Part shown: positions 3,655-5,196 of the stretch, piece by piece | Layout of the letters: every line of letters begins with the position of its first letter | How positions within the stretch are numbered: position 1 is the first letter of the stretch | DNA from: Novakomyces olei | Lineage: Eukaryota | DNA length: 64,000 bases | Assembly: GCA_016906335.1 (NCBI GenBank) | Contig: JADEYG010000009.1 | Location: 496,001-560,000 of the forward strand | Reading direction: 5' to 3' | The notes under the pieces: model-generated | The model's input: only the letters and a program-made list of their open reading frames with translations | Database searches by the model: none | What the model was told of the DNA's origin: nothing | Made by a program: the position numbers and the translations under genes

Positions 3655-5196
3655 TTAGCAGCAACTGCTCGAGCCAGACTGCGAGACATTCTGGCCCTGG
3701 CCCACTTTTACCGTCGACTTGCCAGCGTTGCTAACGGTAGACGAGCCTAGGCGTTCTTTGATCTGACGTGCCATTGTTAAAAATGCCTGTTCAACGTTGG
3801 TCGCGTTTTTTGCCGAGGTCTCAAGGAAAGGGATGTTCAAGCTATCTGCAAATTCCTGGACAGTCAGAAAATACGAAAACATATTTGAACAAAAGAACAA
3901 AATTGGTAAAAAGATAAATAAAGATTACACAGCCAAAATTATAAAAAATATAAAAGGAGCCAATTATTCGTACCTTTGCCACTGTATACTCTACAACTTT
4001 CTTGTCGGTCAAATCCGACTTGTTACCAACAAGCAGCTTATTCACACCCTCCACAGCATAACGATCAATCTCTTGCAGCCACTGCTTTACATTGGTAAAA
4101 GAATCTTTTTGTAGTTAGCTCATTGAAACATAATTGCAGCAAGACGATAAGACTCTATAACAACTAACCTTGATCAGTCACGTCATAGACGACGATAATG
4201 CCGTGAGCTCCACGATAGTAAGATGAAGTGATTGTACGGAACCGTTCTTGGCCTGCCGTATCCCACTACAATAATGATCATCAGCCTCCACATGCTAATG
4301 CGCCATTGCTATAGTCCTTACAATCTGCAGCTTCACTGTCTTGCCCTCAAGCTCAATTGTACGGATTTTCTAGACGTGTTAGAAGTTGAAAAGCCATACA
4401 GCGCATACAAAATCCACTCCGATAGTTGAAATATAGCTCTCTGTGTAGGTGTCGTCGGCGAAACGCAAAAGTAAACACGACTTTCCGACACCCGAATCAC
4501 CTGAAAAGTTAGCTTGGCCAGCAAATAAAAGTTCTAAAGAGAACAAACAGAGGGGGAAAAAGCAAGAAAATCCAGGCAGATAATTATACAGAAAAGCAAT
4601 CGGCAGTCAAAATGCAGTGTGGTTTAAGCGAAAAAGCAAAATATCACGATCAGAACGAGAGCAAACAGAAAGCATTAAACCAAGGCCGATATTAAAAAGT
4701 GTAGAATATAGTCAGATAAAGGGTACGAATTACTCACCAATCAGGAGGAGTTTGAACAAATAATCGTATCTGACGCGTTAGTTATAAACAGCCTTTAAAA
4801 GCCGTTGATCTCTACGCCAGTTAGCATATTGCAAGAAGAACCGCCATGTGCACACTCGACAGAGCCATTTCCTGGGCAGATAAATATGGCCGTATCCCAT
4901 CCAGCCGCCGAGTCTCGGCTCGACTCGTGCTGTCCGTCTCGTCTCTGCTGCTCCACTTTGTCTGGTCCAAGCCTAACAAGAAAATGACAAACATTCACCG
5001 AAACCGGACATACGGCCGCGGGACACAGTGGATTAGAATGTGATCAAGCGAATATGCGGATTCGGAAACCGATCAGTACCGAGCTCGTTAAGCCGGGAAA
5101 CGCGTAGTGTTGCCGCCTTATCGTGTCCATGCACACGGCTTTAAAACACAAAAAGCGATAAAACGAATAACGGGCGACTTACTACTCTGGATTCAT
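3655..5196 (-). CDS. YPT1: Rab1/Ypt1 small GTPase, 7 exons
   Basis: Spliced translation [51 protein letters not shown]...[22 protein letters not shown]...NKSDL...ETSAK...SSSCC* (CC prenylation motif). Exon 1 is 5186-5196 and exon 2 is 4738-4769. Confidence 0.98.
4770..5185 (-). other. Complex first intervening sequence of YPT1; probable [D3,4] stwintron (inner intron 4812-5182 nested in the donor of a 45-nt outer intron)
   Basis: Minus strand reads GA|GTA[GTAAGT...GCTAACTGGCGTAG]AGATCAAC...ACTAACGCGTCAG|ATAC. There are two complete branch/acceptor pairs, and excising the inner intron forms the donor GTAAGA. Confidence 0.7.

Follow-up and report, generated by a model that had tools for sequence, protein, structure and literature searches.

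Among spliceosomal twin introns (stwintrons), in which one intron is nested within a splice site of another, the types [D1,2], [D2,3], [D4,5], [D5,6] and [A2,3] and, sensu lato, [D6,7] and [D7,8] have been named (PMC7138796), and nearly all known cases are of type [D1,2] (PMC12403724). One of type [D4,5] is known from Lipomyces lipofer, a yeast-like ascomycete which does not belong to Pezizomycotina. It occupies the 5'-most intron position of a reticulon-like gene, where two U2 introns are nested such that the external donor is disrupted and is restored only once the internal intron, which starts with GTAAGT, has been excised (Ag et al. 2020, PMC7138796). Both properties appear to recur in the first intron of YPT1, the gene of a Ypt1/Rab1 GTPase, in a stretch of 64,000 nucleotides (nt) from Novakomyces olei (assembly GCA_016906335.1, contig JADEYG010000009.1, positions 496,001 to 560,000), which we call the window and whose own numbering is used throughout. 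Here, the putative internal intron splits the external donor between nucleotides 3 and 4. A stwintron of this type, [D3,4], was not found in the stwintron literature, of which supplementary lists and some papers from 2013 and 2015 lay outside the coverage. Likewise, no link of YPT1 or Rab1 with a nested intron, twin intron or stwintron was found in the literature, and a search for GTAGTAAGT or GUAGUA returned microRNA and unrelated subjects only.

YPT1 is located on the minus strand (3655-5196) and comprises seven exons separated by six intervening sequences of 416, 237, 39, 56, 64 and 118 nt. Joined by their coordinates, the exons yield an open frame of 612 nt for a protein of 203 amino acids which starts with MNPEYDYLFK, ends with CC and shares 176 identical residues with the 202-residue Ypt1 of Yarrowia. 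The host gene is identified as that of a Ypt1/Rab1 GTPase by this full-length Rab1-type sequence with its C-terminal CC; its last exon has 1860 protein matches at E<=0.001, and all the matches listed have Ras-family domains of Pfam, the majority bearing the name Ypt1/Rab1. Exon 1 (ATGAATCCAGA, 5186-5196) provides Met-Asn-Pro and the first two bases of a Glu codon, while exon 2 (ATACGATTATTTGTTCAAACTCCTCCTGATTG, 4738-4769), opening with ATACGATTAT at 4769 and hence with the bases ATAC, continues from the third base of this codon and is followed by the donor GTGAGT. The MNPEYDYLFK frame thus fixes the end of exon 1 at GA and the start of exon 2 at 4769, in agreement with a preliminary description of the intron, made from the sequence of the window, which had held that GA (5186) must be joined to ATAC (4769). 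The sole GT-AG intron able to produce this GA/ATAC join in one step (a slash marks a junction) has GTAGTA as its donor. A perfect donor, GTAAGT, sits 3 nt inside intron 1; were it spliced to the last CAG, the frame would run GAG TAA, the MNPE-stop product which had been predicted earlier.

All signals of a nested layout are present in intron 1 at the right spacing. The leading GTA (5183-5185), which would constitute the start of the external donor, is followed by a putative internal intron of 371 nt (4812-5182) with a donor (GTAAGT, 5182-5177), a branch element (GCTAAC, 4825-4820, branch A at 4821) and, after TGGCG, an acceptor (TAG, 4814-4812) of its own, with the same 9 nt between branch A and acceptor G that other introns of this genome show. 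Directly after this TAG, AGATCA begins AGATCAACGG in minus-strand reading from 4811 onwards. The remaining 42 nt (4770-4811) form the 3' part of the external intron and contain AGA (4811-4809), completing GTA/AGA, a second branch element (ACTAAC, 4782-4777, within AACTAAC, branch A at 4778) and, after GCGT, the last acceptor (CAG, 4772-4770). The external unit accordingly measures 3 + 42 = 45 nt, and 371 + 45 nt make up the total of 416 nt; direct reading of the minus strand bore out these coordinates and lengths, which the preliminary description had already given. Three defining traits of a class [D] stwintron are found here: a U2 intron complete with donor, branch element and acceptor lies inside another (a unit which recurs in all 35 sequences compared below), it divides the external 6-nt donor between nucleotides 3 and 4, and its removal would leave a canonical external intron of 45 nt, GTAAGA...ACTAAC...CAG.

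According to the sequence of events which we propose, the spliceosome would begin by coupling the strong GTAAGT at 5182 to the nearest branch site and acceptor downstream of it, GCTAAC...TAG, and 371 nt down to 4812 would be removed. GTA would then abut AGA, generating an intermediate with the junction CCAGAGTA/AGATCAACGG (5183 joined to 4811) and with the donor GTAAGA at the head of the 45-nt external intron, which in a final reaction would be removed via ACTAAC...CAG, joining GA to ATAC. If the reactions took place in another order, frameshifts or stops would result; joining the first GT to the internal acceptor would produce GA+AGT..., which offers no usable in-frame donor.

The evidence which carries this reading comes from YPT1 loci retrieved from metagenome contigs with the last exon alone as query, so that intron 1 had no influence on their choice. 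The retrieval gave 588 pattern matches and 238 relatives; the best 80, with an identity of 52-78%, were used. An 11-residue coding motif is present in 53 of these 80 loci. In 11 of the 53 no intron precedes the motif, and at least 7 of these 11 are contigs resembling complementary DNA (cDNA), with full frames of 200-204 amino acids reading ATGAAYCCNGAR-TAY; pairs of a cDNA-like and a genomic contig from one species were not encountered among the loci. In 42 of the 53 motif-bearing loci an acceptor is located exactly at the site used in the window, YAG/R TAY GAY. Exon 1 (ATGAAYCCNGA, 11 nt) could be located in 36 of these 42, five others being cut by contig ends and one (L045) carrying an MQPE variant. 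Intron 1 starts with GT[A/G/C]GT in all 36 loci whose exon 1 was found. In L045 and in a locus whose exon 1 is cut by the contig end (L017), GTR likewise stands directly ahead of a canonical donor, and both loci possess an internal branch site and CAG/AGT.

Signals were counted in 35 distinct sequences, 34 from loci plus that of the window. Positions 1 to 9 of the intron are occupied by G (35), T (35), A, G or C (25, 9 and 1), G (35), T (35), A, G or T (23, 11 and 1), any base, G (35) and T, C or A (30, 3 and 2). As internal signals we accepted the first YTRAY with the first YAG 8-30 nt downstream, leaving the following bases unconditioned. Such a module of branch site and YAG occurs in 35 of 35 sequences, with 12.5 expected from dinucleotide shuffles. 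Next to the YAG comes xGx in 34 sequences, against 3.2 expected, and AGT in 21, against 0.19 expected; in the sole xGx miss, L005, a nearer TAG occurs just before CAG/AGT, and if the second YAG is taken the count rises to 35 of 35. As the loci are related by descent, these shuffle figures serve as a yardstick and not as a probability. Base by base, the positions after the internal YAG hold A in 29 sequences, G in 34, and T, C or A in 27, 6 and 2, and conservation ends there. Compared in this way, the conserved A-G-T corresponds to positions 4-6 of the donor which removal of the internal unit would re-form. This donor would read GTAAGT in 14 sequences, GTGAGT in 7, GTAAGC in 5, GTATGT in 2 and GTAAGA in 2 (one of them the window), five other hexamers being present once each. 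Apart from these positions the intron 1 sequences have diverged (32 blastn clusters among 35); since they cannot be aligned and the signals are present, the signals have been kept while their surroundings drifted.

Intron 1 of the loci is 145-313 nt long (median 178), some three times the median of about 58 nt for the other YPT1 introns (n=47, approximate, measured as gaps between tblastn matches), and its internal (54-183 nt) and external (78-188 nt) units are each of ordinary intron size. At 371 nt, the internal unit of the window has at least double the length found in any other locus. Within it no Rfam family was detected, the best match being a sub-threshold one to BTE on the opposite strand (E=0.15). 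An open frame of 82 codons (4798-5043, minus strand) with mildly coding-like codon usage was considered as a coding sequence and judged non-coding, there being no start codon until near its end. With the second donor joined to the last acceptor, a stop codon (TAA, TGA or TAG) arises in 34 of the 35. The exception, L054, alone has GTC for GTR; its re-formed donor would be GTCAGT, and mis-splicing between its internal donor and the last acceptor would add a Ser in frame.

Taken together, this comparison supports the classification of YPT1 intron 1 as a donor-disrupted stwintron of type [D3,4], as the preliminary description had proposed, the module being retained in 35 of 35 and the xG in 34 of 35 orthologous introns. 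It also supports the view that [D3,4] nesting alone would explain at once the GTR ahead of a canonical donor, the internal branch site with its YAG, and the A-G-T after this YAG. With G1 invariant and position 3 being A or G, the leading GTR would act as the start of a donor rather than as codon bases. Nor is the layout confined to this lineage, Pezizomycotina-like YPT1 genes having it widely.

How well the individual splice signals of the window fit was judged from 11 homology-checked introns of two of its genes, the five other introns of YPT1 and six of TUB1, whose model gives an open frame of 1356 nt aligning over its full length with fungal alpha-tubulins. TUB1 (20667-22822, plus strand) has seven exons, including a micro-exon of 11 nt (20907-20917), and its 5' splice-site consensus is unusually loose for an ascomycete. 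A G at position 5 (G5), which all five other YPT1 donors possess, was accordingly taken to be invariant in this genome, a view refuted by TUB1, where three of the six donors lack it: GTAAAT at 20918 (341-nt intron), GTAATA at 21556 (49 nt) and GTATTG at 22568 (169 nt). Overall, 8 of the 11 checked donors possess G5, and a caveat attached to the preliminary description, that donors are degenerate here, holds more strongly than stated. The same set of introns agrees with two of its other statements: GTAAGA, said to be used elsewhere in the genome, is the donor of TUB1 intron 2 (20773), and the 45 nt of the external unit, said to be typical of short introns, fall within the 39-56 nt of the short introns in YPT1 and TUB1. 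On a weight matrix built from the 11 donors GTAAGT reaches 4.01 bits, the highest score, the re-formed GTAAGA 3.65 bits and GTAGTA -1.82 bits, the latter being under all checked donors, of which the lowest scores 0.02.

The chance level of the internal signals in the window depends markedly on the rule applied. Under a strict rule (internal CTAAC with AG 6-14 nt later; 5000 dinucleotide shuffles) the branch/acceptor module appears in 5.5% of the shuffles and with xGx next to it in 1.3%. Under a lenient rule (YTRAY with YAG within 8-30 nt; 300 shuffles) the corresponding values are 69% and 29%. With rates from 1.3% to 29%, the window on its own is only suggestive. A search for introns by bridging open frames, based on the window sequence alone, gave 1868 ambiguous solutions, and its stricter version a handful of unambiguous ones; among donor hexamers preceding CTAAC...AG modules, G5 was no commoner than in a control (24 of 95 cases versus 26 of 100).

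We infer from the sequence comparison both the order of the two reactions and the status of this route, and consider it probable (roughly 0.75) that the nested two-step route is the main way in which this YPT1 mRNA is made. Several observations weigh against it. Weak donors are tolerated in this genome, three of 11 checked ones having no G5, which would leave some probability to one-step use of GTAGTA, and the lenient rule finds the complete module in 0.29 of the window shuffles. The proportions of the two units in the window, 371 + 45 nt, differ from the roughly 88 + 100 nt of the other loci, and a re-formed donor ending in A occurs in only two of the 35 sequences. Moreover, the loci are kin by descent, which deprives the shuffle expectation of the meaning of a probability, their taxonomy is the best named match of one exon only, and the nesting itself is read from comparing sequences.

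If intron 1 were an ordinary single intron, GA/GTAGTA would be joined to CAG/ATAC in one reaction, 416 nt being removed at once while the internal signals lie idle. Such an explanation would draw on the checked donors without G5, on the 29% of window shuffles which contain the module under the lenient rule, on several public Ypt1 models which begin with MNPEYDY (e.g. P0025, P0031, P0090, P0103, P0108), and on reports of nested introns removed in one reaction in the [D6,7] case of L. starkeyi and in [D1,2] stwintrons (PMC7138796; PMC12403724). It leaves unexplained, however, why in otherwise diverged introns the internal branch site and YAG are kept in 35 of 35 and the future G5 in 34 of 35 sequences, and why a canonical donor is always found 3 nt inside the intron. 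In addition, GTAGTA scores below each checked donor, and the perfect GTAAGT only 3 nt away would compete with it, giving a stop codon. We hence regard one-step removal as unlikely. The same competition could be put to use if two routes ran in parallel or acted as a regulatory switch, transcripts joined from GTAAGT to the last CAG being destroyed on account of their MNPE-stop reading, productive mRNA coming from either nested or one-step splicing, and the balance setting the output of Ypt1. The immediate stop which the strong donor yields with the distal acceptor in 34 of 35 sequences is consistent with such a switch, and alternative use of nested units is documented in other stwintrons (PMC7138796; PMC6616335). 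Yet the nested route alone accounts fully for the conservation, and L054 (GTC) would gain an in-frame Ser and no stop, so that we take a switch to be quite improbable.

That the nested look of the window arose by chance, its likeness to the loci being a coincidence, could appeal to the lenient shuffle rate of 0.29. The strict rate of 0.013 speaks against it, as does the fact that the window shares with all 34 other sequences exon 1, the acceptor site, the GTA-GTAAGT-type start and the internal acceptor followed by AG. We consider coincidence highly implausible.

Two-step removal of a nested [D3,4] intron being the preferred reading, the question of its age turns on where the window organism belongs. 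In the loci with the nested layout the best named match of the last exon, a rough label as it is taken from one exon, always falls into Pezizomycotina, namely Dothideomycetes, Lecanoromycetes, Sordariomycetes, Eurotiomycetes, Geoglossomycetes and Lichinomycetes. In an alpha-tubulin tree, by contrast, the window organism stands outside the well-supported clades of Pezizomycotina (100/99) and Saccharomycotina (100/96), its closest neighbours, on a poorly supported backbone, being Pneumocystis (83% identity) and Taphrina. Similarly, a Ypt1 stretch of 11 residues, which reads GICVVYDVTDM in all Pezizomycotina references covering this region except P0119 (Q), deviates from this sequence in the window and matches references from outside Pezizomycotina. 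Close relatives of the window were not found through its last exon, no protein being identical to it and the best full-coverage matches being about 80% identical; the best metagenomic YPT1 locus has 78% identity over part of this exon. For Gcd10 the best match reaches 35% identity, and the tubulin exon has a match of 95% identity in one Logan protein. The introns of the window and of the loci appear to be homologous, as exon 1, the acceptor site and the 5' end are identical. If they are, the nested layout is common to both sides of a deep split within the ascomycetes. Given its recurrence in 34 other distinct fungal sequences, YPT1 intron 1 probably represents an ancient and conserved kind of twin intron which apparently has not been described before.

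Three loci of unclassified affiliation (L034, L035, L067) have their acceptor 3 nt further on, YAG/C GAY TAY. In two of them a single canonical intron is seen, ATGAACCCCGAGTA/GTACGT... of 100 nt in L035 (about 4290-4410) and ATGAATCCTGAATA/GTATGC... of 49 nt in L067 (about 2200-2270). Their donor is located exactly where the nested layout has its internal donor, and the three bases ahead of it (RTA) are exonic there (GAR TA). On the basis of these two loci we hypothesise that the internal unit could be an old intron of the Tyr5 codon around which the external unit was added, shifting the position of the intron by 3 nt; the single intron in the Tyr5 codon may thus be the ancestral state. Combining these points, one may tentatively, at slightly less than even odds, see in YPT1 intron 1 the oldest stwintron yet and the first of type [D3,4], pre-dating the split between Pezizomycotina and this lineage, in which an external intron formed round an ancient canonical intron, found in the Tyr5 codon (TA/C) of other eukaryote lineages, moved the position by 3 nt to GA/R and was then held as in an evolutionary trap. 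The trap would consist in the fact that loss of the internal acceptor, or of the three leading bases, would by itself destroy an essential gene.

Intron 1 has left traces in public annotation. Many public ascomycete Ypt1 models have wrong N-termini which read through the 3' end of intron 1 (...R-YDYLFK), as in P0008, P0024, P0097, P0098, P0101, P0102, P0114, P0119, P0060 and P0087; the genera affected include Saitoella, Endocarpon, Cercospora, Hortaea, Exophiala and Friedmanniomyces, in a sample which is biased, as odd models form clusters of their own. In the Friedmanniomyces model the first 28 residues are the translated external unit of locus L053. Evidently, gene finders reject a GTRGTR donor. 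Elsewhere in the window, a C/D-box small nucleolar RNA of the Z13/snR52 family is encoded at 26461-26567 on the plus strand (73.7 bits, E=1e-12), and an 18S ribosomal RNA gene extends over 62206-64000 on the same strand (Rfam SSU_rRNA_eukarya, 1761 bits, model positions 1-1808 of 1831) until it is cut by the window end; this near-complete gene indicates that a ribosomal DNA unit adjoins ordinary protein-coding genes.

A [D3,4] case would fill a gap among the stwintron types, which provide rare test cases for the definition of introns by the spliceosome and for intron gain and shift. As the codon affected is strictly conserved and the gene essential and present across fungi, the arrangement would be testable in standard model fungi, and in L035 and L067 a shift of an intron by 3 nt through nesting would become open to a concrete test. 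If the layout is shared beyond Pezizomycotina, it would be older than the stwintron described as the oldest so far.

Two other kinds of closely spaced or successively used donors resemble the YPT1 intron superficially. Tandem donors of the form GYNGYN, reportedly described by Hiller et al. in 2006, are said to act as alternative 5' splice sites 3 nt apart which give two in-frame mRNAs differing by one codon. GTAGTA fits this motif; joined to CAG/ATAC, however, the downstream donor of YPT1 gives GAG TAA, and because its second product is a stop we rejected a GYNGYN alternative donor. In recursive splicing, known from Drosophila, mammals and BOT1 of C. neoformans (bioRxiv 10.1101/224170), a long intron is likewise removed in two successive reactions with a donor re-formed at the junction, but the first one starts from the donor of the upstream exon itself, and all bases of the new donor follow the internal AG, as AG/GT... 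In YPT1, in contrast, the internal AG is followed by AGA or AGT, the first reaction would occur inside the intron, and three bases of the donor would come from upstream. A recursive splice site (YAG/GTRAGT) was hence rejected as well, the bases after the internal AG being other than GT: AGATCA follows the internal TAG in the window, and the loci have A in 29 and G in 34 of 35 sequences.

Closer parallels exist among the stwintrons themselves. In bioDA, a [D2,3] stwintron at an ancient intron position takes the place of one canonical intron of other lineages (Flipphi et al. 2017, PMC5639578), and the nested layout of YPT1 appears to do likewise. The canonical intron of other taxa, however, sits at the same position in bioDA, whereas in YPT1 (L035, L067) it lies 3 nt downstream and equals the internal unit. 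Another class [D] stwintron, differing in split position and gene, has kept its position across many fungal classes while its sequence diverged, as is seen for YPT1; the YPT1 layout occurs in addition outside Pezizomycotina and, if homologous there, would hence be older. Compared with the L. lipofer stwintron, which is split after nucleotide 4, confined to one genus, located in a poorly conserved N-terminal region and verified through its intermediate by reverse-transcription PCR (PMC7138796), that of YPT1, as deduced from sequence, would be split after nucleotide 3 within the strictly conserved codon of Glu4 and be widely kept.

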